Shown piece by piece: positions 2,117 through 25,408 of a stretch of DNA of 64,000 bases (positions are counted from its first letter, which is position 1; every line of letters begins with the position of its first letter). The notes under the pieces were generated by a model. It did no database searches and was not told the DNA's origin. It saw nothing but the letters and a program-made list of their open reading frames with translations. A program made the translations under genes and the position numbers. Source of the DNA: Zoogloea sp. GTDB lineage: Bacteria > Pseudomonadota > Gammaproteobacteria > Burkholderiales > Rhodocyclaceae. Location of the stretch: NCBI RefSeq assembly GCF_028693495.1, contig NZ_JAQUVG010000003.1, forward strand, positions 8,416 to 72,415, given 5' to 3'.

Positions 2117-2192
2117 GCGGCAGTAGCTCAGTTGGTAGAGCGCAACCTTGCCAAGGTTGAGGTCGAGAGTTCGAGACTCTTCTGCCGCTCCA
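2117..2192 (+). tRNA. tRNA-Gly (anticodon GCC)
   Basis: 76 nt, GCGGCAGTAGCTCAGTTGGTAGAGC...CTTGCCAAG...GGTTCGAG...CCGCTCCA. Cloverleaf is consistent, the anticodon loop is CU-GCC-AA, and CCA is encoded. Confidence 0.95.
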
Positions 2193-2315: not shown

Positions 2316-2322
2316 GTCGCCC

Positions 2323-2360
2323 GAAAGGCCGGTTCCCACGGAACCGGCCTTTCGTTTTTT
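2323..2360 (+). terminator. Rho-independent terminator after the tRNA pair
   Basis: Perfect 14-bp stem GAAAGGCCGGTTCC / GGAACCGGCCTTTC with a 3-nt loop, followed by GTTTTTT. Confidence 0.85.
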
Positions 2361-2428: not shown

Positions 2429-4750
2429 TCAATGGCGACTCTGGATTTCCTCGATGAAGCCCTGCATGCCGGTGCGGATGTTGGCGGCGTTGCCCTCGTC
2501 CGTATCAATATGCATGGCCAGGCGGTAGGCCGGATTCACCCGCACGACCACGTCGCCGAAGATCAGCTCCCGGTCCCCCTCGACGCGCACCCGCACCACA
2601 TACTTGTCACGGACGCGGAAGCGCCGGGCATCATCGGGCGACATGTGGATGTGGCGCTGGGCACAGATCACCCCGCGCTCGATGGTCGTGCTGCCAGCCG
2701 GCCCTTCCAGGGTCACGCCCGGCGTATTGGCCAGGTCACCGGACTCCCGGATGGGCGGCTGGACGCCAAGCTTGAACTGTTCGGTCATGGCAATTTCCAC
2801 CTGGGTTTCCTTGCGGGTGGGTCCGAGGACGCGCACATTGGCAATCCGCCCCTTGGGGCCTACCAGATGAACCTTTTCGGCACAGGCAAACTGACCTGGC
2901 TGGGACAGCTCATGCTCGGGCGTGAGCTGATGATCCTTGCCGAAGAGCTTTTCCACATCCGCCTGACACAGGTGCACATGGTGAGCTGAAATCTCGATGG
3001 GGATGGCCGGCGGCTCCTCAGCCCGGGACTCCAGCAACAGCTGGTTGCGTTCGATGGCCCGAAGAGTTTCCCAAGCCAGCAGACGCTGATGGTCATTGGC
3101 GATGACCAGGATGGTCACCGGGGAGTCGTCCGCCGAGATGGTGGCATGAGAGCCCACCATCTCCAGGTTGCGGTTCTTCTCCTCGTCCAGCTTGATGCCC
3201 ATGTAAGCCAGACCCTGACAGGCCAGGCTGCGTACGGCCGCACTGGTTTCACCCACATCGCCGGTAAAGGCCAGCACATCAATGCCCCCCATCGCCGCCA
3301 CATAGGCACCGATGTTCTTGCGCACCTGGTAGCAATAGGCCTTGTGGGCCAGCAGCGCACGGTGATGACCGTTGCTGGCCGCCGTCTCGATGTCGTGGAT
3401 GTTGCTGGAGATGCCGGAAATGCCCTTCAGGCCGCTGCCGGTATTGATCAGGCTGGACAGCTCCTGCGGGGACATGCCGTGCTGCTCCATGAGATGGATC
3501 ATCACCGCCGGATCAATGCTGCCGGAACGGCTGGCCATGATCACACCGTCGGTGGGCGTCATCCCCATCGAGGTATCCACCGAACGGCCATGATCGATGG
3601 CGCACAGGGACGAACCAATGCCCAGGTGGCAGGAGATGATCTCCAGCTCACCGAGAGGGCGCTTGAGCACCTCCGCCGACTTGAGGGATACATATCGGTG
3701 AGACGTGCCATGGAAGCCATAACGGCGGATACCCTCCTGTTTGTACAGGTCGTAGGGCAAGCCGTAGAGGTAGGCGTAGGGCGGCAGGGTCTGATGGAAA
3801 GCCGTATCGAAGACCGCCACATGGGGCACACCGGGCAGCTGCTTCATCGCCATCCGGATGCCGTCCACGTTCACCGGATTATGCAGGGGCGCAAACACCG
3901 ACAGGGATTCGATCTCCGAAATCACCTGAGGGGTGATCACCACCGCACTGGAAAACTTGTTTCCCCCATGGACAACCCGATGCCCCACCGCGCTCACGTC
4001 CTCGGGATGGAAGGCAAACGCGTCTCCCAGCAGGCGGGTAGATTCCTGGATGATCCGGAACAGCTCGGCCAGGACAAAGGGCTCACGCATCTGGGTACGG
4101 GTCTGGGTACCCACGGAGACGGTCACGCACGCCACGGCCGGGTCTGCATTGTCGATGATCCCATGGACATCCGACCCCAGATCCTTGGTGTCGTAAATGC
4201 CAAAATGGATCTGGCTGAGGCCCACGTTGAGGGCCACCACCTTGCCGGTGCTGCCAGTGTGCAGCGACAAGGCGTAGGGGTCATCGGTGCGGGGGGAGCC
4301 CTGAGCCTGTCCGGTGACGATATCCACCGACATCCGGCGCATCCGGTCCAGCAGCAGCCGGGAAAGATACGCCACGGCCTTGGGGTTGGTCAGGATCCGG
4401 GAATTGAAGACATCCTGAGGCACCAGCAGCACGTAGCAACGGTTACCGGCAATCACATCCGCAGCAAGCTTGTCGCCCGTGAGGATGGACATGACGCCGA
4501 ACACATCCCCCGGCCCCAACTGGCTGAGCACGGTGCGGGTGCCCGTATTGTCGGTGATGGAAATCTCCGCATGCCCGGTGATCAACACACCAAGGTATTT
4601 GCTGTCGTCGCCGGTTTCCAGGATCGCCTCATTACCCTCGTAGGTGGCCAGGCGGCCCCGGCTGACGATCTCCTCGACCCTGTCGGCCGGGAAGTGCTCG
4701 AAAAGGCGTACCTGTTCGAGGAAAAACCGTTTCAGATCAATTTCGCTCAC
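2429..4750 (-). CDS. Three-domain fusion protein: cNMP-binding-like effector domain + acetate/propionate kinase-family domain + PduL-type phosphate acyltransferase
   Basis: Single open frame. The N-terminal CAP-type domain reads LFEHF...GPGDVFGVMSILTGDKLAADVIA. Kinase signatures are RVVHGG, APLHNP, VAVFDTAFHQTLP, YGFHGTSHRYV and DTSMGMTP. PduL signatures are IEISAHHVHL, AQRHIHMSPDDA and MHIDTDEGNA. The start is set at in-frame GTG 4750 (VSEIDLKRF...). The ORF track's start at 4852 is a TTG adding 34 Cys/Ala-rich residues, so the start is uncertain. Confidence 0.85.
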   Translation of the reverse strand: MSEIDLKRFFLEQVRLFEHFPADRVEEIVSRGRLATYEGNEAILETGDDSKYLGVLITGHAEISITDNTGTRTVLSQLGPGDVFGVMSILTGDKLAADVIAGNRCYVLLVPQDVFNSRILTNPKAVAYLSRLLLDRMRRMSVDIVTGQAQGSPRTDDPYALSLHTGSTGKVVALNVGLSQIHFGIYDTKDLGSDVHGIIDNADPAVACVTVSVGTQTRTQMREPFVLAELFRIIQESTRLLGDAFAFHPEDVSAVGHRVVHGGNKFSSAVVITPQVISEIESLSVFAPLHNPVNVDGIRMAMKQLPGVPHVAVFDTAFHQTLPPYAYLYGLPYDLYKQEGIRRYGFHGTSHRYVSLKSAEVLKRPLGELEIISCHLGIGSSLCAIDHGRSVDTSMGMTPTDGVIMASRSGSIDPAVMIHLMEQHGMSPQELSSLINTGSGLKGISGISSNIHDIETAASNGHHRALLAHKAYCYQVRKNIGAYVAAMGGIDVLAFTGDVGETSAAVRSLACQGLAYMGIKLDEEKNRNLEMVGSHATISADDSPVTILVIANDHQRLLAWETLRAIERNQLLLESRAEEPPAIPIEISAHHVHLCQADVEKLFGKDHQLTPEHELSQPGQFACAEKVHLVGPKGRIANVRVLGPTRKETQVEIAMTEQFKLGVQPPIRESGDLANTPGVTLEGPAGSTTIERGVICAQRHIHMSPDDARRFRVRDKYVVRVRVEGDRELIFGDVVVRVNPAYRLAMHIDTDEGNAANIRTGMQGFIEEIQSRH

Positions 4751-5102
4751 GCTGATTCTCGCTTCCAAGGGGTATAGCCATGAATGACAGGATAGTCCTG
4801 CTGCTGCAATGCAGCAAAGAACAATCGCGGCGGCACCGGCGGGACTCCACAACTCCGTTGCGAAAGGGCGACGGCAGGCCTGACCACGAGTCTATGACAA
4901 TCCTATGACGAAAATAAGGCACACGCCGGGCCAGGCTGCCAGCGCTGCCAGATGACGCCGCGGAGCTGCCGGACGGACAACCGTACCCCCGGCTGCAGGG
5001 ATTCCACAATTTATTGGCGACGGCCGTTCCTGGCTCATTACCCGAGGGGCTGGCGGCAGGTGCCCTCAACCTCGTGATTGCCATCAACCACCGCCCGGAC
5101 CC

Positions 5103-6218
5103 TTACTTTGACCCGTGATTCAGAGGCTGGAACTCCCCGTTGCGGATCCGGGCGAAGAATACCTGCCGCTGGGTATCCCCGTTGGCATCGAAGACGATCT
5201 CCTGCTGGAGGCCCTGGTAAGGACCATACTTGAGCACAGCCTGCTTGGCAGACTCCCCGCGTTCGCGACGGCTCATGGCCGTAAACAGCACCATCGCCGC
5301 ATCGTAGGCACATACGGCGCTGTAGTCGGGGCGCTTGTTGAAGCGCTGGAAATAGGCCTCGCGAAATGCCGCATACCGCTCGGAACCATCATGGCGGTTG
5401 TAGTTCTCGATGATCACCAGCCCCTCCACCATTTCACCCCCCAATTCCAGCATCTGGAGGGACGCACCCCATTCAGCAGCAGCAATGGGCAGTTCGGGCG
5501 CCCGCTTGCGTGCCTGGTGGGCCAGCCTGGCCACGTCGATCCCTCCCGAGATGAACAGCAGCGCATCGGGCCGGGCCGACACCATGTCTGCCACGACCCG
5601 GGCAAAATCCAGGTCCACCCGGGATTCATAGGGAACAGCAACGACCAGAACGCCCCCGAGCTCGGTATAGAACCGACGGAATTCATTCAGCCAGGACTCC
5701 GTAAACACCTGGTTCCGCACATCGTAAGCAATCGCCATGCGCTTCTGCCCCATGCCCAAGAGCGTCTGGGCATAATCGCTGGCATTGTCACGGGTGGTTC
5801 GGTTGATACGGATCAGATTATCATCCTTGCCATGCAGCTCCATCGCCGTGATCGTCGGACTGATCGCCAACGTACCTGTCCGGGCCAGCACCGGCACCGC
5901 CGCCGCTGCCATGCCGCTGGAGAACGGGCCGATCACCGCCTCCACCTTCAGGGCAGCAAGCTCCTCCGCAGCACGGACAGCTGTCGCCGGTGTGGCGGCA
6001 TCATCCCTGGCGACCAGCCTGACCTTCCGGCCAGCAACGCCCCCAGCCCGATTGGTCTGCTCCACGGCCAGCTGAACACCATGGAGTCCCGATTCGCCGA
6101 CATCGGAATTACGGTCGGAAAGCCCTCCCAGGAAACCCACTACCAAGGGCGCCTCCTGGCTGCAGGCGGCCAGCCAAACAACCAGCATAAGGGACAGCAA
6201 GAAACAGGCTCTGGGCAT
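5103..6218 (-). CDS. Periplasmic solute-binding lipoprotein, LivK/Peripla_BP_6-like (branched-chain amino acid type ABC substrate-binding fold)
   Basis: Start moved to ATG 6218, giving the lipoprotein signal MPRACFLLSLMLVVWLAAC. The body (VVGFLGGLSDRNSDVGESGLHGVQLAVEQTNRAGGVAGRKVRLVARDD...VIGPFSSG) is typical of type I periplasmic binding proteins. No ABC permease or ATPase genes are adjacent. Confidence 0.82.
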   Translation of the reverse strand: MPRACFLLSLMLVVWLAACSQEAPLVVGFLGGLSDRNSDVGESGLHGVQLAVEQTNRAGGVAGRKVRLVARDDAATPATAVRAAEELAALKVEAVIGPFSSGMAAAAVPVLARTGTLAISPTITAMELHGKDDNLIRINRTTRDNASDYAQTLLGMGQKRMAIAYDVRNQVFTESWLNEFRRFYTELGGVLVVAVPYESRVDLDFARVVADMVSARPDALLFISGGIDVARLAHQARKRAPELPIAAAEWGASLQMLELGGEMVEGLVIIENYNRHDGSERYAAFREAYFQRFNKRPDYSAVCAYDAAMVLFTAMSRRERGESAKQAVLKYGPYQGLQQEIVFDANGDTQRQVFFARIRNGEFQPLNHGSK

Positions 6219-6401
6219 GGAGTTTCTCAAAAATTCAAAAAAGCCAACAATTTCACTAAAAATTTTAGTGTTTTTAACAAAAATATCAAATAATGATTTT
6301 TGCCTTGCGCTGTGACGAGATACGCTCTCCGCAAGACTTTCCAAGATGGGGATCTTCAAACACGCACAGCCACCACAGATGACCATATAGCCCGATCAAT
6401 C

Positions 6402-9347
6402 ATGACATCAGCTTTCAAACGGCCTCGCTGGCATATGCGCTGGCGAAACTCGGTCCGGCAACGCCTGATGGTCCTGGGACTGGCACCCCTGCTGGTCGCC
6501 CTGCCTGTCATCGTGGGAATCCTGATCCTGGTCGGAGGTGCCCGGTTCGATAACCTGCTGCTTGCCACGGCGGCAGGCAACATGGCCAGCGCCCGTACCT
6601 ACATGGACCAGCTGCGCGCCCAGACACGCCAGGACATCCTGGAAGTCGTACGCTCCGACACGATTGTCCGGCTGCTGGAAGAGCGGGCCGCCCACCCCGC
6701 TGGGGACGCAACGGAAACCATCGACCGGGCCCTGAGGGCCCGGGCGGACGCTGCCCATCTCGACTATCTGGTGATCTCTACGCCCGAAGGGCATGTGATC
6801 GCCTCAAGCTCAGGACTCCGGCCCGGCAGCCAGATCCCCATCAGCAACGTAGCCCGACAAGCACGCACCGGGATCCCAAGCTCATCCTACGAACGCTTTG
6901 AAGTCGCGGAACTGGCGGCTCTCAACCCGGAGCTTCCCGCCAAGACCCTCATCAAGACAGACAACGCCCTGCACACCAATGCACCTCCGTCCAAGGATGA
7001 ATCACGGGGCCTGATGATCGCCGCTGCGGCCCACTTTCCCCTGAGCACGCGACACCCCGAAGCCATCGTATTGGGAGGAATCCTCCTGAACAACAACATT
7101 CCGCTGACCAATCGCATCCGGGAAGTGGTCTTTCCCATCAACGCCAACTTTGGCGAAGTCAGCGGCCATGCCTCCCTCCTCCTCGGGAATACGCGGGTGG
7201 CCACCACCCTGACCGGGCACCGGAACGAATATCTGCTTGGCACGCTCCTCAGCCCGGAGATCCAGGCACAGGAAACCCAGGAAACCCTGATCCTGGGCAA
7301 AACACTGACCCTGCGCACCCACATTGCAGGAGAATGGTACGTGGCGGGGTATCAGCCCATTCTGGACAGCCAGGGAGAACAGATCGGGATTTTTGCCACC
7401 GGCTTTCCTGAACATCATTACAGCCGGGAAAAATGGCTGCAAGTGGGAGGCATCACCTTGCTGCTGGCCATCAGCATGCTGACACTCACTTTTTCCTTTC
7501 TGCGAGCCGGCAACGACATCACCCGACGTCTGACGGCCATTGGCGGCACGATGCGGGCCATTCACAACGGCGAGACGGGCAGCCGCGTCACTCTGGATCA
7601 CGAAACCGACGAGATCGCCCAGCTGGCCCGCCACTTCAACGAGCTGCTGGATGCCCTGGATGCCCGGGAGCAGGCCGAACGGGCCGCACGCCAGGCCATC
7701 GCCGAAGAAGCCATGCGCCGTCGCGCCCTGTTCGAAATGGCCCGGGACGGCATCGTCGTGGTAGACATGAACTGTGCCGTCGTGGACGCCAATCCCCAGT
7801 TCGCCACCATGCTGGGGTATTCCCTGGAGGAAATGAAAGCCCTGCATGTATGGGACTGGGATCCGGGCATCGCCCCTGCCGAACTGCTGGAGATGGTCCG
7901 CAGTGTCAGTCCCGAAGGAGAACAATTCGAAACCCGGATCCGCAGCCGTAGTGGCTGCAACCTGCCGGTGGAAATCAAATCGAGCCGCGTCCTCTGGGGC
8001 GACAAGGTGTACGTGATGTGCACGGTGCGGGAAATTTCAGAGCGCAAGCAACTGGACCAGGAGCTTGAGCGCCACCGCCACCACCTGGAAGACCTGGTCG
8101 GCCAGCGCACTCTGGAACTGGCCTCTGCCCGGGACGAAGCTGAAAGTGCCAACCGGGCCAAGAGTGCCTTCCTAGCCAACATGAGCCACGAAATCCGGAC
8201 CCCGATGAACGCCATCATCGGCCTGACTCACCTCCTGCTGCGGGACGTGGAAAACCCGGAGCAGGCTGAACGCCTGGGAAAGGTGGACAGCGCTGCGCGA
8301 CATCTCCTGCGGGTGATCAACGACATCCTCGACCTGTCGAAAATCGACGCCAACAAGATCACCCTGGAAAACATCGACTTCCCCCTGTCCGCCGCCCTGG
8401 ACCGGGCCACCTCGATGCTGCGGGCCAGCGCAGCCCAGAAAGGACTCCAGCTGCAGCTCGACGTGGATCCCGTCCTCCCCACCTGGGTCTGCGGCGACCC
8501 GGTGCGTCTGGAGCAGATCGTTGTAAATTATTTGTCGAATGCGATCAAATTCTCCGAAAAAGGCTGCATCACCCTGCGCGCCCGGGCGCAGCCGCCTCTC
8601 GGCGACGGCCGCCTCGTGGTGTGCATCGAGGTGGAGGATCAGGGCATAGGCCTCAGCCCCAAGCAGATTGACTCCCTCTTCAGGGCCTTCGAACAGGCCG
8701 ACAACTCCACCACCCGACGCTATGGCGGCACGGGTCTGGGCCTGGCCATCAGCAAGCGCCTGGCCGAGCTGATGGGCGGGAGCGTCGGGGTGACGAGTGC
8801 CGAGGGTACAGGGTCCACCTTCCGGGTGACGCTGCCCTTTCTCCCTGCCAGCACAACCCTGCTGTACGCAGGAAGCCCTGCCACGGACGCGGGCTTTGGC
8901 GAGGACAAAACCGAGGGCCTTGCCGAGCAGATCTGCACGGGCCATGCAGGTCAGCACATCCTGCTGGTGGAGGACAACCACCTCAATCAGGAGATCATCT
9001 GCGAATTGCTCGGGGATACCGGACTCCGGGTGACTGTCGCCAACAACGGGCAGGAAGCGCTGGACATGCTCGCCCGAACCCCCTGTGACCTGGTCCTGAT
9101 GGACCTCAGCATGCCGGTCATGGGAGGTCTGGAAGCGGCTGCCCTGATCCGCCGGCAGCTTCATCTGACGGATCTGCCGATCCTGGCAATGACGGCCAAT
9201 GCTTTTGACGAGGACCGGGATCGCTGCCTGGAAGCGGGCATGAACGACCATGTGGCAAAACCGGTGGATCCGGAGATCTTCTTCCAGGCTCTGTTGCGCT
9301 GGCTGCCCCTCCAGTCGCACCCTGCAGCACCTGATGCCAGACAGTGA
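6402..9347 (+). CDS. Hybrid sensor histidine kinase (periplasmic sensor domain, HAMP, PAS, HisKA, HATPase_c, receiver)
   Basis: A TM segment (LMVLGLAPLLVALPVIVGILILVGG) is followed by a ~300-aa extracytoplasmic region and a second TM. Then come HAMP, PAS, an H-box (ANMSHEIRTPMNAIIG), a G-box (GGTGLGLAISKRLAELMGG) and a C-terminal receiver (ILLVEDNHLN...LVLMDLSMPVMGG). Start taken at ATG 6402; the track start at 6300 is TTG. Confidence 0.9.
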   Translation: MTSAFKRPRWHMRWRNSVRQRLMVLGLAPLLVALPVIVGILILVGGARFDNLLLATAAGNMASARTYMDQLRAQTRQDILEVVRSDTIVRLLEERAAHPAGDATETIDRALRARADAAHLDYLVISTPEGHVIASSSGLRPGSQIPISNVARQARTGIPSSSYERFEVAELAALNPELPAKTLIKTDNALHTNAPPSKDESRGLMIAAAAHFPLSTRHPEAIVLGGILLNNNIPLTNRIREVVFPINANFGEVSGHASLLLGNTRVATTLTGHRNEYLLGTLLSPEIQAQETQETLILGKTLTLRTHIAGEWYVAGYQPILDSQGEQIGIFATGFPEHHYSREKWLQVGGITLLLAISMLTLTFSFLRAGNDITRRLTAIGGTMRAIHNGETGSRVTLDHETDEIAQLARHFNELLDALDAREQAERAARQAIAEEAMRRRALFEMARDGIVVVDMNCAVVDANPQFATMLGYSLEEMKALHVWDWDPGIAPAELLEMVRSVSPEGEQFETRIRSRSGCNLPVEIKSSRVLWGDKVYVMCTVREISERKQLDQELERHRHHLEDLVGQRTLELASARDEAESANRAKSAFLANMSHEIRTPMNAIIGLTHLLLRDVENPEQAERLGKVDSAARHLLRVINDILDLSKIDANKITLENIDFPLSAALDRATSMLRASAAQKGLQLQLDVDPVLPTWVCGDPVRLEQIVVNYLSNAIKFSEKGCITLRARAQPPLGDGRLVVCIEVEDQGIGLSPKQIDSLFRAFEQADNSTTRRYGGTGLGLAISKRLAELMGGSVGVTSAEGTGSTFRVTLPFLPASTTLLYAGSPATDAGFGEDKTEGLAEQICTGHAGQHILLVEDNHLNQEIICELLGDTGLRVTVANNGQEALDMLARTPCDLVLMDLSMPVMGGLEAAALIRRQLHLTDLPILAMTANAFDEDRDRCLEAGMNDHVAKPVDPEIFFQALLRWLPLQSHPAAPDARQ

Positions 9348-9494: not shown

Positions 9495-10352
9495 ATGTCC
9501 AATGCCCTGTCGTTTCCTGTTCCGTCCGCGGTTGGCAGCCTGGATCAATACATCCAGAGCGTGAATCGCATCCCGTTGCTGACCGAGAAGGAAGAATCCG
9601 ACCTGGCCCACAGCTTCCGGGAAGAAGGCGACCTGGAAGCGGCCCGCAAACTGGTGATGTCCCACCTGCGCTTGGTAGTAGCCATCGCCCGGGGTTATCT
9701 GGGTTATGGTCTGCCCCATGCCGACCTGGTCCAGGAAGGCAACGTCGGCCTGATGAAGGCCGTCAAGCGCTTCGATCCCGAGCGGGGCGTGCGCTTGGTG
9801 TCCTTCGCCATCCACTGGATCAAGGCCGAAATCCACGAGTACATCGTCAGGAACTGGCGTCTGGTCAAGATCGCGACCACCAAGGCCCAGCGCAAGCTGT
9901 TCTTCAACCTGCGCAGCATGAAGACCAGCAACAGCACCCTTCAAGGGGAGGACGTGCTGGCCGTGGCCCAGCAACTGGGGGTCAAACCCGAAGAAGTCCG
10001 GGAAATGGAAACCCGTCTGTCGGGAGGCGACGTGGCCCTGGAAAGCGGCCCTGATGACGAAGAAGAGCGCTTTGCTCCGATCGCTTACCTGGCCGACCCC
10101 CACGCCGAGCCTTCCGAAGTCATCGCCCAGCGGGAATATGCCCGCCTGCAGGATTCGGGCCTGCATGAAGCCTTGGCTGCCCTGGATGAGCGTAGCCGGA
10201 CCATCGTCCAGCGTCGCTGGCTGGCGGAAGGGGATGCCGCCACGCTTCATGAACTGGCAGCAGAATATGGAGTTTCCGCTGAGCGGATCCGCCAGATCGA
10301 AGCCAAGGCGATGCAGAAGATGCGCACCCAGCTGGCAGCCCTGACGGCCTGA
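9495..10352 (+). CDS. rpoH: RNA polymerase sigma-32 (heat-shock sigma factor)
   Basis: 285 aa with sigma-70 regions 2-4 and the RpoH box QRKLFFNLR. A GAAGGAGG RBS lies 9 nt upstream of the ATG. Confidence 0.95.
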   Translation: MSNALSFPVPSAVGSLDQYIQSVNRIPLLTEKEESDLAHSFREEGDLEAARKLVMSHLRLVVAIARGYLGYGLPHADLVQEGNVGLMKAVKRFDPERGVRLVSFAIHWIKAEIHEYIVRNWRLVKIATTKAQRKLFFNLRSMKTSNSTLQGEDVLAVAQQLGVKPEEVREMETRLSGGDVALESGPDDEEERFAPIAYLADPHAEPSEVIAQREYARLQDSGLHEALAALDERSRTIVQRRWLAEGDAATLHELAAEYGVSAERIRQIEAKAMQKMRTQLAALTA

Positions 10353-10391: not shown

Positions 10392-10414
10392 GGGCGGCCT
10401 CCGGGAGGCCGCCC
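10392..10414. terminator. GC-rich hairpin between convergent rpoH and the SCO-family gene (probable bidirectional terminator)
   Basis: GGGCGGCCT-CCGGG-AGGCCGCCC, a 9-bp perfect stem, followed by TATTTG on the plus strand. It overlaps the stop of the minus-strand gene. Confidence 0.55.
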
Positions 10415-11022
10415 TATTTGCCAGCCAGCAACTGACGGATATCCGCCGCAATCTGTTCGGGCCTCTCGCCGTGTTTCACATACAGGCGCAGCCGCCCCTG
10501 AGGGTCGAAGACATAGGTTCCGGTGGAATGATCCACGGTGTAGGTGCCCCCCCTGGTACCCCCCTGCTTCTGGTAGAACACCTTGAACTCCCTGGCCACC
10601 GCCTCGGTGGCCGCTTCGTCCCCACGCAAACCGACAAAACGCGGATCGAACACCGGTACATATTCGGCCAGCAAGGACTGGGTATCCCGCTCGGGATCCA
10701 CCGTAATGAAGAGCACCTGCACCTGCTCTGCATACGCCCCGAGCTGGCGCATCACTTCCGCCATGCCCAGCAGGTTGGTAGGGCAGATGTCGGGACATTG
10801 GGTATAACCAAAGAACAGGGTCACCACTTTTCCCCTGTAATCCGCCAGGCTACGCACAGCGCCGGTGTGGTCCTTCAGCCGAAAATCCTTGCCATAATTG
10901 GCACCGGTAATGTCCGAACTGGCAAACCCGACCCTCCCCTGCCCTTCACCGGAAGGCGAGCACCCCACAAGAACCCCTGCTGCCAGCAAGGCAGCCACAC
11001 TGTATCGAAGGCGGAAACTCAT
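10414..11022 (-). CDS. SCO1/SenC-family copper chaperone (thioredoxin fold)
   Basis: CPDICP (CxxxCP) motif in FGYTQCPDICPTNLL. Start moved to ATG 11022, giving the lipoprotein-like signal MSFRLRYSVAALLAAGVLVGC. Confidence 0.88.
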   Translation of the reverse strand: MSFRLRYSVAALLAAGVLVGCSPSGEGQGRVGFASSDITGANYGKDFRLKDHTGAVRSLADYRGKVVTLFFGYTQCPDICPTNLLGMAEVMRQLGAYAEQVQVLFITVDPERDTQSLLAEYVPVFDPRFVGLRGDEAATEAVAREFKVFYQKQGGTRGGTYTVDHSTGTYVFDPQGRLRLYVKHGERPEQIAADIRQLLAGK

Positions 11023-11146
11023 AAATATTTTTTTTGATAAAAAAAACAATATCAATGCTAGACTTCGGCCAGAATTTAACTTGTAGCAAATTGATACAAG
11101 TGGGGCCTGGAGGAGACGCCAAGGCCAAAACCATAAGAAAGCCTGT

Positions 11147-14910: not shown

Positions 14911-16272
14911 ATGTTTGAAAAGATCCTTATCGCCAATCGGGGCGAGATTGCCTTGCGCGTGCTGCGAGCCTGCCGTGAGCTGGGCATCAAGACCGTCGCC
15001 GTACACTCCGAACCGGACGCCGAGGCCAAATACGTCAAGCTCGCCGACGAATCCGTGTGCATCGGCCCGGCTTCATCCACCCTCAGCTACCTCAACATCC
15101 CGGCCCTGATCTCGGCGGCTGAAGTCACCGATGCCGAAGCCATCCACCCGGGCTACGGTTTTCTGTCCGAAAACGCCGACTTCGCCGAGCGGGTCGAGCA
15201 ATCTGGTTTCGTCTTCATCGGCCCCCGCGCCGAGACCATCCGCCTGATGGGTGACAAGGTCTCCGCCAAGGACGCCATGAAAGCCGCCGGGGTACCCTGC
15301 GTCCCCGGCTCCGAAGGCGCCCTGCCGGACGACCCCAAGGAGATCGTCAAGATCGCCCGCGCCATCGGCTACCCGGTGATCATCAAGGCAGCCGGCGGCG
15401 GCGGTGGGCGCGGCATGCGCGTGGTGCACACCGAAGCCGCCCTGCTCAACGCCGTCACCACCACCCGCTCCGAAGCCGGCGCCTTCTTCGGCAACCCGGT
15501 GGTGTACATGGAGAAGTTCCTGGAAAACCCGCGTCACGTGGAAATCCAGATCCTCGCCGACCAGCACGGCAACGCCATCCACCTGGGCGAGCGCGACTGC
15601 TCCATGCAACGGCGCCACCAGAAGGTCATCGAGGAAGCCCCCGCGCCCGGCATCGAGCGCCGCCACATCCTGCGCATCGGCGAACGCTGCGCCGAGGCCT
15701 GCCGCAAGATCGGCTACCGGGGCGCCGGCACCTTCGAATTCCTTTATGAGAATGGCGAGTTCTACTTCATCGAGATGAACACCCGGGTCCAGGTCGAACA
15801 CCCGGTCACCGAACTCATCACCGGTGTCGACATCGTGCAGGAGCAGATCCGCGTCGCCGCCGGCCAGAAGCTGCGCTACCGTCAGAAGGACATCGAGTTC
15901 CGCGGCCATGCCATCGAGTGCCGCATCAACGCCGAAGACCCGTTCAAGTTCACCCCCTGCCCGGGCAAGATCGGCAACTGGCACGTCCCCGGCGGCCCCG
16001 GCATCCGCGTGGATTCCCACGTGTACAACGGCTACACGGTGCCCCAGCACTACGACTCGATGATCGGCAAGCTGATCGCCTACGGCGACACCCGCGACCA
16101 GGCCATCCGCCGCATGCGCATCGCCCTGTCCGAAATGCTCGTCGAGGGCATCAAGACCAACATCCCGCTGCACCAGGAGCTGATGCTTGACGCCCGCTTC
16201 GTCGAAGGCGGCACCAGCATCCACTACCTGGAACACAAGCTGGCGGGGCGCAACGAGGTCTCGAAGAACTGA
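14911..16272 (+). CDS. accC: Acetyl-CoA carboxylase biotin carboxylase subunit
   Basis: 453 aa. [26 protein letters not shown]..., an ATP-grasp region, and [14 protein letters not shown]. Confidence 0.97.
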
Positions 16273-22526: not shown

Positions 22527-24443
22527 TCAGGCTCGCTGTTCCTTTTTGGCCACCACGGTCAGGGGTGGCGCGGTGGGCTGAGCTGGGGTGTACTCGGGCA
22601 CCCAGCGTCTCAATTCCTTGCGTACTTCCACAGCCCCCACCGACCGGCGCTGGCGCAACCAGTGCAGCAGCGCTTCAAGCCAGCCGTCCTCCACCTCCTG
22701 AGCCCGGGCGATCCGCAGCTTGGGATGGTGGGTGGCTCGGGTCTGCTCGGTATCAGCGAGGACTTCCTCATAGAGTTTCTCACCCGGGCGCAAGCCGGTG
22801 AATACAACCCGGATCTCGCTCTCCGAATGGCCTGACAACCGGATCATGTCCCGGGCCATGTCAGCGATGCGCACCGGCTCACCCATGTCGAGCACGAAAA
22901 TTTCACCGCCATGTCCCATCGACCCCGCCTGCAGCACCAGCTGGGCAGCCTCAGGAATGGACATGAAAAAACGGGTGATGTCCGGGTGCGTCACGGTCAC
23001 CGGTCCGCCTGCCGAAATCTGCTCCTGAAACTTGGGAATGACACTCCCCGCGCTCCCCAGCACATTACCGAAACGGACAATCTCGAACTGAGTCTTACCC
23101 CTCGCCGACAGCGACTGACAGACCCGCTCGGCCAAGCGCTTGGTGGCACCCATCACGTTGGTCGGATTGACCGCCTTGTCGGTGGAAACCAGCACGAAGC
23201 GGGGAACCCCGAAAGTCACCGCACTACGGGCCACCTGCCAGGTTCCGAGAACATTGTTGCGCACAGCCTCCCAGGCGTTGTCATCCTCCATCAGGGGAAC
23301 ATGCTTGTAAGCCGCCGCATGGAAGACCACATGGGGACGGTAACGGCCGAGCACCTCATCCACCCGGATCGCATCCTTGACATCCCCTGCCAGCAACAGC
23401 ACCTGCACCCCGGGGAAATGGCTGGCGAACTCCTCCCCCAGGCGGTACAGGGAAAATTCGCTCACATCGAAGCAAATCAGCAGGGACGGCTCGAAACGGG
23501 CAATCTGGCGACACAGCTCCGATCCGATGGAGCCTCCCGCACCGGTCACCATGACCACCTTGCCGCGCAGATACTCCCTGACTTCCGCGGTATGAATATG
23601 CACCGGGTCACGGCCGAGTAGGTCTTCCAGGTCCACCTGGCGGACTGCGCTGTACTCCACCCGGCCGGCCATCACGTCCTCGATGGCCGGAAGAATCATC
23701 GCCTTCACGCCAGCCCTCACACAGGCACTGGTCACCGCACGGCGGACCTGGTGACGGGCGGACGGCATGGCAATGATGGCCGTGCGGACCTTGAACTCTT
23801 CGGAAAGGTGCTCAAGATCGGCGATTCGCCCCAGCACCTTGCAGCCATAGACCTCACGCCCCTGGCGCCGGGGGTCGTCGTCGAGCAAGCCCACAACCCG
23901 CCATTCGGAGGAGCGGGCCAGATCCCGGATCAACCCGGCAGCCTCCTCCCCCGAACCGAGTACGATGACGGGCTGCCCCTGTGCCCGCAAGGCACCGTAC
24001 AGGTGGAACTCCTTCCAGGTTCGATAAAGGGCACGGGTTCCCCCCATATAGACTGCCAGCAACAGCGGCTGGAGCAGGAATACCAACCGGGGCACCGCCG
24101 GGAAGGCGCCAGCGGTCACCACCACCACCAGCAAGGGGGTGACGAGGGTCGCCACCAGGACCGCCCGGGCAATCCGCAACAGATCCGGCAGACTGGCAAA
24201 CACCCAGACGCCCCGGTAAAGGCCAAAGGCACGCATCAGGGAACCCTGCACCACCAGCGCAGCTCCCAGGCCTGCGATGGCCGCCGGGTGGAAGTCGGCA
24301 GGGACGTCAAGATTGAAGCGGATCAGGTAGGCCAGCCACCAGGACAGCGCGACCCCCACGAGATCGGACAGGAACACCAGCAGGGGATGAAAGTTTTTGG
24401 GGATCAAGGTCGGGAAGCACTGCGAGCCAGGTGCCGACGCCAT
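22527..24443 (-). CDS. Membrane-bound nucleotide-sugar 4,6-dehydratase/epimerase (CapD/WbpM/PglF family)
   Basis: Start moved to ATG 24443. Four N-terminal TM segments, then the Rossmann motif VMVTGAGGSIGSELCRQI and an SDR-extended core. The 838-aa track ORF overlaps the upstream gene. Confidence 0.9.
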   Translation of the reverse strand: MASAPGSQCFPTLIPKNFHPLLVFLSDLVGVALSWWLAYLIRFNLDVPADFHPAAIAGLGAALVVQGSLMRAFGLYRGVWVFASLPDLLRIARAVLVATLVTPLLVVVVTAGAFPAVPRLVFLLQPLLLAVYMGGTRALYRTWKEFHLYGALRAQGQPVIVLGSGEEAAGLIRDLARSSEWRVVGLLDDDPRRQGREVYGCKVLGRIADLEHLSEEFKVRTAIIAMPSARHQVRRAVTSACVRAGVKAMILPAIEDVMAGRVEYSAVRQVDLEDLLGRDPVHIHTAEVREYLRGKVVMVTGAGGSIGSELCRQIARFEPSLLICFDVSEFSLYRLGEEFASHFPGVQVLLLAGDVKDAIRVDEVLGRYRPHVVFHAAAYKHVPLMEDDNAWEAVRNNVLGTWQVARSAVTFGVPRFVLVSTDKAVNPTNVMGATKRLAERVCQSLSARGKTQFEIVRFGNVLGSAGSVIPKFQEQISAGGPVTVTHPDITRFFMSIPEAAQLVLQAGSMGHGGEIFVLDMGEPVRIADMARDMIRLSGHSESEIRVVFTGLRPGEKLYEEVLADTEQTRATHHPKLRIARAQEVEDGWLEALLHWLRQRRSVGAVEVRKELRRWVPEYTPAQPTAPPLTVVAKKEQRA

Positions 24444-25408
24444 GCGACATCGATCCCCAGCCCCAGAAGAAAATGCATCAACAGCACGATTGTAATGAGG
24501 GCCCACTGCCAGGAGAAGTCCAGTCTCAGCATGCCCACGGCAGAGGCGCCCGAACCGGCCATCAGAAAGTAAGCCAGCAGCGCCGTCCGGCGATGACCGA
24601 ACCCCAGCTGAACCAGGCGCTGATAGTAATGGGTCCGGTGAGCCTGCCAGACCCGTTCCCGTCGCAGGGCCCGCTGCAGCAGGGTCACGCTTGCATCCAG
24701 GATGAAGGGCGCGAAGACCAGGAGTGGAAACCACAGGGGCCAGGCGCCGGCACCCGAGCCGCACAGCCCGAGGGCGCCCGCCAGAAACCCCAAGGGCACC
24801 GATCCTGCATCCCCCATGAAGATCCGTGCCGGATGAAAATTGAAGCACAGGAAACCTGCCGCCGCCGCTGCGATGCTGGCAGCCAGCAGGGCCAGGGCAG
24901 GCAGGTCCCCCAGCCAGGCCGCAGCCGCCAACGCCGAAAAACCGAACAGCCCCATGCCTCCCGCCAGCCCGTCGGCGCCATCCATGAAATTGTAGAGATT
25001 GGCCATCCACACCAGCCCGACGGTCATCAGCACCCGCAGCCACCCGGGCTGTTCCAGCCCCAGCAATGCCAGCACACTCGCCGCAGCCACGAACTGAACC
25101 AGGAAACGGAGCCGTGCCGGCAGGCTGCGCCGGTCATCCAGCAAGCCGATGGCGGCCAGCAGCATGGCCCCCCCCAGGGCTGCGAAAAGCCCGTTTCCCA
25201 GGCCATCCGCAAGCCACAGGGCCAGGCCAGCGGCAAGCACCCCTGCCATGACCCCCACGCCACCGGTTCGCGGCGTCGGACGGACATGGAGGGAACGCTC
25301 ATTGGGATGATCCAGGAAATACAGCCAGGATCCCGGACGGCAGCACTGCCGGGTGACCCCCCAGGCTACCCCGAAGGCCAGCACGGGAATCAACCATTCA
25401 ACGGCCAT
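24404..25408 (-). CDS. Glycosyltransferase family 4 polyprenyl-phosphate sugar-1-phosphate transferase (WecA/WbpL/MraY-like)
   Basis: Polytopic membrane protein with NLYNFMDGADGLAGG and FMGDAGSVPLGF motifs. Start at ATG 25408 (MAVEWLIPVL...). Confidence 0.88.
   Translation of the reverse strand: MAVEWLIPVLAFGVAWGVTRQCCRPGSWLYFLDHPNERSLHVRPTPRTGGVGVMAGVLAAGLALWLADGLGNGLFAALGGAMLLAAIGLLDDRRSLPARLRFLVQFVAAASVLALLGLEQPGWLRVLMTVGLVWMANLYNFMDGADGLAGGMGLFGFSALAAAAWLGDLPALALLAASIAAAAAGFLCFNFHPARIFMGDAGSVPLGFLAGALGLCGSGAGAWPLWFPLLVFAPFILDASVTLLQRALRRERVWQAHRTHYYQRLVQLGFGHRRTALLAYFLMAGSGASAVGMLRLDFSWQWALITIVLLMHFLLGLGIDVAWRRHLARSASRP

Follow-up and report, generated by a model that had tools for sequence, protein, structure and literature searches.

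The question raised by this locus is what a single polypeptide that joins a CAP-type sensor, an acetate kinase (Ack) and a PduL-type phosphotransacylase actually does. An earlier note on the window, meaning the whole 64,000-nucleotide stretch of Zoogloea sp. DNA analysed here, had proposed a ligand-gated module for the interconversion acyl-CoA <-> acyl-phosphate <-> carboxylate + ATP.

Gene, reading frame and domain layout

The gene occupies an uninterrupted open reading frame on the minus strand, positions 2429..4852 of the window. The longer of the two translation starts proposed for it, TTG 4852, would give 807 residues with a hydrophobic N-terminal extension. This start was rejected, as all 82 orthologues begin at the position of GTG 4750, most with a stop close upstream. 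The true start is GTG 4750, because an ATG or GTG is found there in 82 of 82 orthologous loci, a Shine-Dalgarno-like sequence 6 nt upstream (AAGCGAGA; 4757..4764, minus strand) is conserved in the orthologous loci shown, and an in-frame stop lies 5–15 codons upstream in most of the 82 loci. On this comparative evidence the TTG 4852 extension is an artefact of ORF calling. The complete coding sequence (2429..4750, minus strand) specifies 773 amino acids and ends with TGA at 2431–2429. A 773-residue Zoogloea sp. database entry is 100% identical to the protein, and the database orthologues are 772–774 residues long. The continuous 772–774-residue frame is common to all 82 loci, 81 of which are in other assemblies, so neither a frameshift nor misassembly accounts for the fusion.

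Profile searches of the protein returned, in this order, cNMP_binding (PF00027; E 4.7e-15, 55.8 bits against a cut-off of 27.5), Acetate_kinase (PF00871; E 1.3e-125, 419.6 bits against a cut-off of 22, model positions 1–389 of 392) and PTAC/PduL (PF06130; E 2.2e-78, 262.5 bits, model positions 1–175 of 176, both PF06130 halves covered). The NCBIfam models TIGR00016 for Ack (401.9 bits, cut-off 293.4) and NF011652 for PduL (266.2 bits, cut-off 209) were also matched. Together with the uninterrupted frame and the predicted fold, these matches confirm the single frame and the order of the three domains given in the earlier note, and every motif quoted there is present at verified coordinates. The Pfam scan of the protein detected no HTH family; after the CAP domain comes Ack, not a C-terminal DNA-binding domain. 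Assignment to the CRP/FNR type fails, the NCBIfam models of CRP and YeiL scoring far below cut-off.

An AF2 model was built from a 60-sequence alignment and compared by Foldseek. Its overall pLDDT is 88.8, and at a pTM of 0.62 the orientation of the domains relative to each other is only moderately determined. The domains are joined by a flexible linker 1 (residues 141–168; 4247..4330, minus strand; pLDDT below 50 at 143–155; dN/dS 0.54) and by linker 2 (residues 566–583; 3002..3055, minus strand; pLDDT dip at ~571–580; dN/dS 0.30). The whole-gene dN/dS is 0.17. The product is classed as a cytoplasmic protein of the CAP-like/Ack/PduL fusion family.

A hairpin with a 15-bp stem (2322..2354) lies between the 3′ end of the gene and a convergent tRNA-Gly/tRNA-Thr pair, and is likely a shared terminator. 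Gene context offers no functional support. No conserved operon was found around the gene across the loci, none of the six window neighbours that were probed recurs beside it in the 81 other loci, and the sole recurrent neighbour, a hybrid sensor kinase, is the adjoining gene in about a quarter of the loci.

Effector, PduL and kinase-derived sites

The CAP/cNMP-binding-like effector domain (residues ~5–140; 4331..4738, minus strand; dN/dS 0.20) aligns in sequence with the PKA-R, PKG and CRP domains. Its model comprises a β-barrel and a C-helix, with block pLDDT mostly 78–93, and is matched by Foldseek to GlxR/CRP. The phosphate-binding cassette, FGVMSILTGDKLAADVIA (4448..4501, minus strand), was compared by alignment with FGELALMYGTPRAASV and FGELALLYNSKRAATA from cAMP-binding domains of solved structure and is degenerate: comparison of FGVMSILTGDKLAADV with FGELALMYGTPRAASV places Val at the Glu for the ribose 2′-OH and Leu at the Arg for the cyclic phosphate. 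The cassette Arg is missing from all three-domain representatives. Because of the Glu to Val and Arg to Leu changes, binding of cAMP or cGMP by this domain is unlikely, in agreement with the doubt expressed in the earlier note, and canonical binding of either was ruled out by the alignment to solved cAMP/cGMP domains.

To judge from its residues, the C-terminal PduL domain (residues 584–773; 2432..3001, minus strand) is catalytically complete. Of the published zinc ligands and contacts to phosphate and CoA, 14 were scored, and all are present (S45, H48, H50, R97, L99, R103, Q107, E109, S127, H157, H159, R194, H204 and N211 of PduL), with His at K70. The two zinc sites (H48, H50 and E109; H157, H159 and H204) and the phosphate contacts R103 and S127 are conserved throughout the clade, the query included. 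The model superposes on 5CUO with a TM score of 0.96 and an rmsd of 1.0–1.2 Å, and the dN/dS of 0.09 is the lowest of the whole protein. With the full-length profile match, the contact residues and the fold, the completeness of PduL claimed earlier is upheld. A tblastn search of the window and the 82 loci with a PduA query gave no PduA-like microcompartment shell match. Association with a microcompartment (metabolosome) was rejected: Ack precedes PduL in place of an encapsulation peptide, and no shell protein was matched in the window or the 82 loci.

The central, acetate-kinase-derived ASKHA domain (residues 169–565; 3056..4246, minus strand; core dN/dS 0.13) has the Ack fold, its model aligning with 1G99 at a TM score of 0.93 and an rmsd of 2.0 Å over ~400 residues. 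Ack residues S10 to E385 are numbered as in M. thermophila Ack (MtACK). The acyl-phosphate side (N7, G9, R91, V93, L122, H123, D148, F179, H180, H208, P232, R241 and E334, with V93, L122, F179 and P232 in the pocket) shows no variation among the 121 clade sequences, yet all nine ATP-side positions, S10, S12, K14, N211, G239, R285, G331, N335 and E384, are replaced, the first eight by L, Q, H, I, A, H, D and T, respectively. S10, S12 and K14 belong to PHOSPHATE1 (LNVGLSQIHF, canonical LNxGSSSLKY; 4202..4231), N211 to PHOSPHATE2 (CHLGIGSS; 3608..3631), and G331 and N335 to the ADENOSINE motif (FTGDVGET; 3245..3268), all on the minus strand. In LOOP3 (MASRSG; 3521..3538, minus strand) R241 is kept and G239 is Ala, or Pro in most of the clade; R285, which stacks on adenine, lies in LOOP4. 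The three motif substitutions quoted in the earlier note are thus real, as is the cassette lacking Glu and Arg. A change absent from it concerns the Mg site, where the essential Glu384/Glu385 pair (PTNEE) is ANDHQ (IANDHQRLLA, canonical IPTNEELMIA; 3074..3103, minus strand). E384 to His and E385 to Gln are private to this genome; the clade has Asp-Glu, with an acidic residue at position 384 in 119 of 121 members.

The replacement residues are themselves nearly fixed among the 121 clade sequences (Q180, H182, I378, H452 and D/E498 in all, P406 in 117). Among 99 standalone Ack cluster representatives, 82 carry at most two ATP-side changes; canonical residues occupy the eight ATP-motif positions from S10 to N335 in 67–96%, with Gly at 331 in 95 and Glu at 384 in 98. 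N211 contacts the β-phosphate of ATP and G331 the α- and β-phosphates (PMC4390882), and G331 is conserved in every Ack apart from the PPi-dependent one of Entamoeba. Replacing N211, G239 or G331 singly lowers activity 6- to 200-fold (PMC4390882, PMC6461089), E384/E385A mutants are inactive (PMC6461089), and each single change tested in MtACK or PgAck was strongly deleterious (PMC4390882, PMC6461089). The protein also misses every NCBIfam equivalog cut-off for Ack/propionate kinase (NF009063, 395.5 against 659; NF009045, 354.3 against 580; NF005520, 299.5 against 561).

Because the replacements are fixed and the Ack core dN/dS is 0.13, the domain points to a rebuilt functional site rather than decay; pseudogenisation was also ruled out by the per-domain dN/dS. 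The protein is probably not the ATP-making machine of its annotation. The ATP-forming scheme proposed earlier is only partly supported: its carboxylate + ATP end is not supported as stated, because all nine ATP/Mg contacts, including G331 and E384, are replaced.

Distribution, proposed function and rival readings

Relatives of the protein occur in at least 423 species-representative genomes. The closest 80 genomes are nearly all labelled Rhodocyclales (Zoogloea, Dechloromonas and Azonexus), a clade that includes polyphosphate accumulators of wastewater plants, and Syntrophales/Smithella and Nitrospirota have three-domain versions that are more distantly related. The earlier note overstated the rarity of the arrangement, since the architecture is present in hundreds of species and the Ack-PduL fusion, with a channelling rationale, already appears in Erbilgin et al. 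2016 (PMC4784909). Its remark that no such protein was known to be characterised holds for the literature searched (PduL fusions, cNMP with Ack/Pta, Dechloromonas, Smithella/Syntrophus) and for the PDB, where no characterisation of the CAP-Ack-PduL architecture was found.

PduL is intact throughout the three-domain family. Its Ack domains, in contrast, are canonical at one end (Syntrophales/Smithella) and fully dead at the other (P0128, P0131, P0132 and P0143, without R91, H123 or H180). Since PduL remains intact beside a dead Ack in some lineages, the architecture works without a kinase-competent Ack. The sister lineage P0121 (53% identity) has likewise kept the acyl-phosphate site and lost the ATP site; its PHOSPHATE1 contains Lys and Arg residues. 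A neighbour-joining tree of Ack domains groups the fusion proteins loosely, but it is crude, distorted by the long branches of degenerate members, and gives no basis for claims on their origin. In a published KO table, the fusion-bearing Dechloromonas MAGs L033 and L045 each have K00925 twice and the classical pta (K00625) once. With K00925 assigned to the fusion by us, a conventional Ack-Pta route therefore exists alongside it.

The preferred reading, given a probability of about 0.55, is that the Rhodocyclales fusion is a ligand-gated PduL enzyme with an Ack-derived module that handles acyl-phosphate without the standard ADP/ATP couple. It is proposed because the acyl-phosphate pocket is kept and the grip on Mg-ADP/ATP is exchanged for conserved residues. 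PduL would interconvert acetyl- (or propionyl-) CoA and Pi with acyl-phosphate and CoA at its two-zinc site. The central domain, which descends from a true acetate kinase, would capture the acyl-phosphate made or used by PduL, and may report its occupancy to PduL or hand the phosphoryl group to a partner that is not a nucleotide. Allosteric control through some ligand would come from the N-terminal CAP-type domain. Nonetheless, changes that evolved together could still accommodate Mg-ADP in a displaced pose, as the mutational data concern single substitutions in another enzyme, and the kept catalytic and metal residues N7 and D148 and the Asp384 in the rest of the clade fit ongoing catalysis no worse than a purely sensing role.

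Binding of a non-nucleotide phosphoryl acceptor or donor in the rebuilt cleft, most simply Pi/PPi as in Entamoeba or else polyphosphate, is a speculative option to which a low probability is assigned. The phosphoryl-transfer residues are fixed, as is the acid at position 384 except in this genome, and five of the positions that distinguish the PPi enzyme are changed. The reaction would then be acetyl-CoA + 2 Pi <-> acetate + CoA + PPi, with chain extension as the alternative, and the protein would be the first acetate kinase of a bacterium to work without ATP, physically coupled to PduL and a sensor domain.

A classical bifunctional enzyme, in which Ack and PduL are both active, acyl-phosphate is channelled under CAP gating and the motif changes are tolerated or compensated, is possible although rather doubtful. 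The full-length, high-scoring Ack match with its MtACK-like fold, the retention of all acyl-phosphate and phosphoryl-transfer residues and, in 119 of 121 clade members, of an acid at 384, the strong purifying selection and the channelling proposal of Erbilgin 2016 (PMC4784909) are all consistent with it, and for the canonical three- and two-domain relatives the model very probably holds. The present protein, however, has changed nine of nine ATP/Mg contacts (G331 to Asp and R285 to His among them, with E384 to His and E385 to Gln here), at positions where the single changes tested were strongly deleterious (PMC4390882, PMC6461089); it falls short of the equivalog cut-offs (e.g. 395 against 659), and at least two fusion-bearing genomes have a separate ackA and pta.

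At the other extreme, the Ack domain might bind no ligand and be an inert scaffold or dimerisation relic, leaving PduL with a large N-terminal appendage. Ack proteins are dimers, hence the domain could persist for assembly alone, and in other three-domain lineages PduL is kept although even R91, H123 and H180 are gone. This is judged very improbable, because the buried active-site residues of a mere scaffold would not be so tightly constrained as a pocket invariant in 121 of 121 sequences, with the replaced residues fixed and a dN/dS of 0.13. Hardly any weight is given to a chance ORF, a frameshift-fused gene pair or a decaying copy: five changes at otherwise invariant columns are private to this genome (A380S, L403V, D554H, E555Q and G606D), but the frame is continuous in 82 loci, HMM E values reach 1e-125, the whole-gene dN/dS is 0.17 and the model is confident at a pLDDT of 88.8.

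What is new is that the Ack domain of a known type of fusion keeps its acetyl-phosphate pocket while every ATP contact examined is replaced. Carbon overflow, substrate-level phosphorylation, two-component signalling and the non-enzymatic acetylation of proteins all meet at acetyl-phosphate. The gene is present in hundreds of Rhodocyclales species, among them Dechloromonas and Zoogloea from wastewater-plant populations, and in genome-scale models it is entered simply as 'acetate kinase' (K00925). Should its kinase half make no ATP, such reconstructions over-count Ack activity and lack both a PduL-type phosphotransacylase and a point of regulation at acetyl-phosphate. With PduL constant and Ack canonical, rebuilt or dead, the family is a natural series in which to study the change from enzyme domain to sensor, or a switch of phosphoryl partner. 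It also bears on what determines ATP versus PPi use in acetate kinases, the question taken up by the published Entamoeba mutagenesis.

Comparison with known systems

Ack-PduL fusions were mentioned in one sentence, with substrate channelling suggested, by Erbilgin et al. 2016 (PLoS Biol, PMC4784909). Those fusions likewise have PF00871 followed by PF06130 in one chain, without an encapsulation peptide and outside a microcompartment locus, and in lacking shell genes and that peptide the present protein agrees with the non-BMC PduLs of the same study. That work included no experiments on the fusions, did not mention the N-terminal CAP-like domain and did not analyse the integrity of the Ack active site. 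At the ATP site most of the two-domain Ack-PduL fusions examined here are canonical, with no more than one altered position in 8 of 11 representatives, unlike the present protein.

The architecture is shared by MAG proteins of Syntrophales/Smithellaceae/Smithella (P0122–P0124 and P0127), which have the same CAP-Ack-PduL order, 773–776 residues, 41–46% identity, the Arg-less cassette and an intact PduL. These proteins keep LNxGSSSLKY, FTGGIGEN and PxDEE (with Ser at N211 in P0123 and P0124), whereas all nine ATP-side residues are replaced in the Rhodocyclales clade. Because they keep the ATP motifs, it is plausible that they are truly bifunctional and form ATP in syntrophic fermenters.

No Ack other than the PPi-dependent enzyme of Entamoeba histolytica (EhACK, PDB 4H0O) is known to dispense with ATP. 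EhACK differs from ATP-dependent Acks at K14, N211, G239, G331 and N335, all five of which are also changed here, and both proteins keep R91, H123, D148, H180 and R241. The replacements themselves differ, T/S/Q/E in EhACK against I/P-A/D/T here (at positions 211, 239 and 331, T, S and Q against I, A/P and D). EhACK also keeps S10, S12, R285 and E384/E385, all replaced in the present protein; its PHOSPHATE2 has an extra Gly (HLGTGGSS, against HLGIGSS without insertion here), and its Q323-M324, which occludes the adenosine pocket, corresponds to D-V. Membership in the Entamoeba PPi-Ack type was rejected on these grounds: the extra Gly and Q323-M324 are absent, and S10/S12 and E384/E385 are not retained. 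EhACK is, moreover, a standalone enzyme.

Two further systems may be analogous in layout. The Pta of E. coli and Salmonella has an N-terminal, non-catalytic regulatory domain and is under allosteric control by pyruvate, PEP, NADH and ATP. As proposed for the fusion, a C-terminal phosphotransacetylase in a ~700-residue protein is preceded by a part derived from an enzyme fold and used for regulation; however, the catalytic fold is that of Pta and not PduL, and the regulatory fold is P-loop/BioD-like and not ASKHA plus CAP. Mycobacterial Pat, a cAMP-regulated protein acetyltransferase (cNMP-GNAT) that controls acetyl-CoA synthetase, resembles the fusion in placing a CAP-type domain on an enzyme of acetate/acetyl-CoA metabolism rather than on a DNA-binding domain, and the NCBIfam model NF058543 gives a weak match (E 0.0046). 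Pat binds cAMP through a canonical cassette, whereas the cassette of the fusion lacks the Glu and Arg, and the output domains of the two proteins are unrelated.

Gene, domain architecture and distribution

The fusion gene lies in an uninterrupted minus-strand open reading frame (window 2429..4852), on which Pfam places, in order, cNMP_binding (E 4.7e-15), Acetate_kinase (E 1.3e-125, near-full model coverage) and PTAC/PduL (E 2.2e-78, full model coverage). NCBIfam agrees at the subfamily level, the ackA model TIGR00016 scoring 401.9 bits (cut-off 293.4) and the phosphate propanoyltransferase model NF011652 scoring 266.2 (cut-off 209); the equivalog-level acetate kinase (Ack) and propionate kinase models of NCBIfam all scored far under their own cut-offs. 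The three-domain order that the earlier note had read from the sequence is thus confirmed. The protein starts at GTG 4750 and comprises 773 residues; the longer form from TTG 4852, also proposed there, was discarded because ATG or GTG occupies the 4750 position in all 82 orthologous loci, most of which have an in-frame stop 5-15 codons 5' of the start. A conserved AAGCGAGA motif precedes the start codon in the orthologous loci (82 compared), and database orthologues are 772-774 residues long. One continuous three-domain frame, with no splitting stop or frameshift, was found in 82/82 loci, of which 81 come from other assemblies, so a sequencing artefact does not account for the fusion.

The AlphaFold model, computed from a 60-sequence alignment (mean pLDDT 88.8, pTM 0.62), is of low confidence only in the two linkers. 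Foldseek superposed the central domain on Methanosarcina thermophila Ack (MtACK, 1G99; TM 0.93) and the C-terminal domain on Rhodopseudomonas palustris PduL (5CUO; TM 0.96), and matched the N-terminal domain to CRP/GlxR effector domains. No PDB entry spans even two of the three domains.

A Zoogloea sp. database entry matches the protein at 100% identity, and the best 120 database matches (79-88% identity), annotated as 'acetate/propionate family kinase' or 'acetate kinase', all share its three Pfam domains. With one genome scanned per GTDB species, relatives were identified in at least 423 genomes; the best 80 of these share at least 78% identity and are nearly all labeled Rhodocyclales or unclassified proteobacteria, among them Zoogloea, Dechloromonas (with Ca. 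D. phosphorivorans), Azonexus, Ferribacterium, Propionivibrio and Azoarcus. The three-domain layout occurs in 13 clusters of a library of 1.84 billion 50%-identity representatives, which also holds about a dozen further clusters of two-domain Ack-PduL fusions and a few of CAP-Ack fusions. The distant three-domain clusters include members from Syntrophales/Smithellaceae/Smithella, from Ca. Magnetoovum (Nitrospirota) and from a 1.36-Mb genome of 38.6% GC. Erbilgin et al. noted that Ack-PduL fusions are devoid of encapsulation peptides and that fusion may help channelling (PMC4784909), wastewater-genomics papers merely tally AckA and Pta, and literature searches yielded no study of a fusion protein of this kind by biochemistry or genetics. 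As the family is large and already in databases, there is no novelty in the architecture as such; the family is uncharacterised.

Active sites of the two catalytic domains

The sequences of MtACK and of the Entamoeba PPi-dependent Ack (EhACK, 4H0O), checked against the PDB, were aligned with the query, 121 sequences of the Rhodocyclales clade of close orthologues and the other fusion lineages. On the acyl-phosphate side, 121/121 clade sequences retain N7, G9, R91, V93, L122, H123, D148, F179, H180, H208, P232, R241 and E334 (MtACK numbering), Val93 being the mark of an acetate-type pocket. On the Mg-ATP side, all nine contact positions are replaced in the query. MtACK S12, K14, N211 and R285 are Gln, His, Ile and His, respectively, in the query and the rest of the clade alike. 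S10 is Leu in the query (Ile, Leu or Val in the rest of the clade), G239 is Ala (mostly Pro), G331 is Asp (Asp or Glu), N335 is Thr (Thr or Ser) and E384 is His (Asp). In addition to these nine, E385 is Gln (Glu). N211 touches the ATP β-phosphate and G331 the α- and β-phosphates, and single substitutions at N211, G239 or G331 lower activity 6- to 200-fold (PMC4390882). R285 stacks against the adenine ring. The presumed metal ligand is E384, the counterpart of E385 in P. gingivalis Ack, and its alanine mutant has no detectable activity (PMC6461089). Standalone Acks are canonical on this side: among 99 full-length representatives, the canonical residue occurs at 67-99% at the nine positions, and 82 deviate at two or fewer.

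The clade maintains its alternative residue set. In the numbering of the fusion protein, Q180, H182, I378, H452 and D/E498 each occur in 121/121 sequences, D554 in 119/121, P406 in 117/121 and T502 in 114/121. Per-domain dN/dS values from 150 orthologue pairs are 0.20 for the CAP domain, 0.54 for linker 1, 0.33 for the Ack N-lobe (residues 169-250), 0.13 for the Ack core, 0.30 for linker 2 and 0.09, the lowest in the protein, for PduL. These patterns argue for remodelling of the Ack domain and not decay. Since a neutral relic would drift, the former nucleotide cleft presumably still has a role; it could accommodate a different ligand or acceptor, or serve as a contact surface for one of the other domains.

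The PduL residues, scored from the list in the structure paper via alignment to 5CUO, show the domain to be intact. The query and the clade retain both zinc sites (H48/H50/E109 and H157/H159/H204), R103 and S127, which contact phosphate, and S45, R97, L99 and N211, which contact CoA; K70 is His in the fusion protein.

Five substitutions are private to the present genome's copy and fall at columns that do not vary among 81 orthologues: A380S (window 3611-3613), L403V (3542-3544), the neighbouring D554H and E555Q (3086-3091) and G606D (2933-2935). The neighbouring pair arose as GAY GAR to CAT CAG, a first-position G to C change in each codon, and strips the former Mg site of its last acidic pair. 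Either the protein in its current role can do without the metal site, or this strain's copy has shifted functionally.

Across the wider family the Ack domain occurs in graded states. Two-domain Ack-PduL fusions are mostly canonical (no more than one ATP-side change in 8/11 representatives). In the three-domain proteins of Syntrophales/Smithella both catalytic domains are canonical, making these good candidates for true ATP-forming bifunctional enzymes. The Rhodocyclales clade and its sister P0121 (53% identity) have kept the acyl-phosphate side and PduL and lost the ATP side, and P0128, P0131, P0132 and P0143 have in addition lost R91, H123 or H180 with PduL perfect; a kinase-competent Ack is thus not needed for the architecture to persist. 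Degeneration is opposite in P0141 (Ca. Magnetoovum sp. WYHC-5, MCI4625386.1), which combines a canonical Ack active site with loss of most PduL zinc ligands and of every CoA and phosphate contact scored, and P0129 and P0130 have lost residues from both domains. PduL is the constant element in most lineages. Neither the conserved remodelling of the ATP site nor the gradation of kinase-domain states beside an unchanging PduL seems to have been described before. The P0121 gene (locus L082/L083, 8001-10958) resides in a streamlined 1.36-Mb ENA chromosome of 38.6% GC, and directly downstream is a gene for phasin, a PHA-granule protein, a possible link to PHA/acetyl-CoA metabolism.

The CAP-like domain and the genomic setting

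Alignment to solved cAMP/cGMP-binding domains shows that in the cassette FGVMSILTGDKLAADV the ribose-binding Glu is replaced by Val and the phosphate-binding Arg by Leu; the ligand is therefore probably neither cAMP nor cGMP, as had been proposed. None of the three-domain representatives has the Arg; most lineages outside the Rhodocyclales clade do retain the Glu. Pfam detected no DNA-binding domain on the fusion protein. The closest solved cNMP-type domain, aligned to query residues 9-115, is domain 2 of the Euglena PKA regulatory subunit (6RSX; FGEMSLMFNQPCVATV), which likewise lacks the cassette Arg. Kinetoplastid-type PKA regulatory subunits bind nucleosides and not cAMP. This resemblance may offer a lead as to what class of ligand the Arg-less three-domain family binds.

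In effect, the fusion gene is monocistronic. Plus-strand genes for tRNA-Gly(GCC) (window 2117-2192) and tRNA-Thr(GGU) (2241-2315) converge on its 3' end, and the intervening hairpin (2322-2354), which has a perfect 15-bp stem and a T-run, probably terminates both transcription units. Upstream, a Peripla_BP_6 solute-binding protein gene (5103-6386, minus strand) and a gene for a hybrid histidine kinase of 1015 aa that combines Cache, HAMP and PAS domains with a receiver (6300-9347, plus strand) are divergent and, as mechanically called, overlap; their products may form a binding-protein-dependent sensor pair. Neither gene lies beside the fusion gene in any other genome, and none of six window neighbours probed recurs at the other 81 loci. 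The sole recurrent neighbour is a hybrid sensor kinase, adjoining the fusion gene in about a quarter of loci. A tblastn search with a PduA query found no shell-protein genes in the window or the 82 loci, and the window contains no second Ack or PduL. A published KO table lists K00925 twice and classical pta (K00625) once for the Dechloromonas MAGs of loci L033 and L045; assuming that one K00925 is the fusion, both would carry a conventional ackA-pta pair alongside it, consistent with the fusion having specialised.

Housekeeping genes flank the locus (9495-10352, plus; 10414-11055, minus; 14911-16272, plus), the set comprising SCO1/SenC, biotin carboxylase (AccC), PrmA and a 285-aa ORF whose translation looks like an RpoH-type sigma factor, and they indicate an ordinary chromosomal setting with no obvious mobile element. 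The G+C content rises from ~0.61 at the window start to 0.65-0.69 over roughly 24-52 kb (24000-52000), an AT-skew spike of 0.36 occurs at 24-26 kb, and an 838-aa ORF spans 22527-25043 (minus strand).

Function of the fusion protein

The best-supported reading, to which we assign a probability of about 0.55, is that of a PduL phosphotransacylase gated by the CAP-like domain, in which the Ack-derived module would still bind acyl-phosphate and would no longer run the usual ADP/ATP couple. Its role would be to sense the product or hand it off, or else to act as a transferase toward a non-nucleotide partner. The sensor-gated, ATP-forming kinase/phosphotransacylase of the earlier note survives in part: PduL and the non-cAMP/cGMP cassette stand, and the ATP-forming kinase is disfavoured by the nine replaced ATP-side positions. 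A classical ATP-forming bifunctional enzyme is nonetheless a possibility, if a doubtful one, as the co-evolved site might still bind Mg-ADP. An Ack domain reduced to an inert scaffold is unlikely given the low dN/dS of its core, and an artefact is more improbable still.

By analogy with the Entamoeba enzyme, the Ack domain might instead carry out Pi/PPi- or polyP-linked phosphotransfer, a rather unlikely proposal that ranks behind ATP formation. Five of the positions that distinguish the Entamoeba PPi-Ack are changed in the fusion Ack too, whereas the specific features of the Entamoeba enzyme are missing from it.
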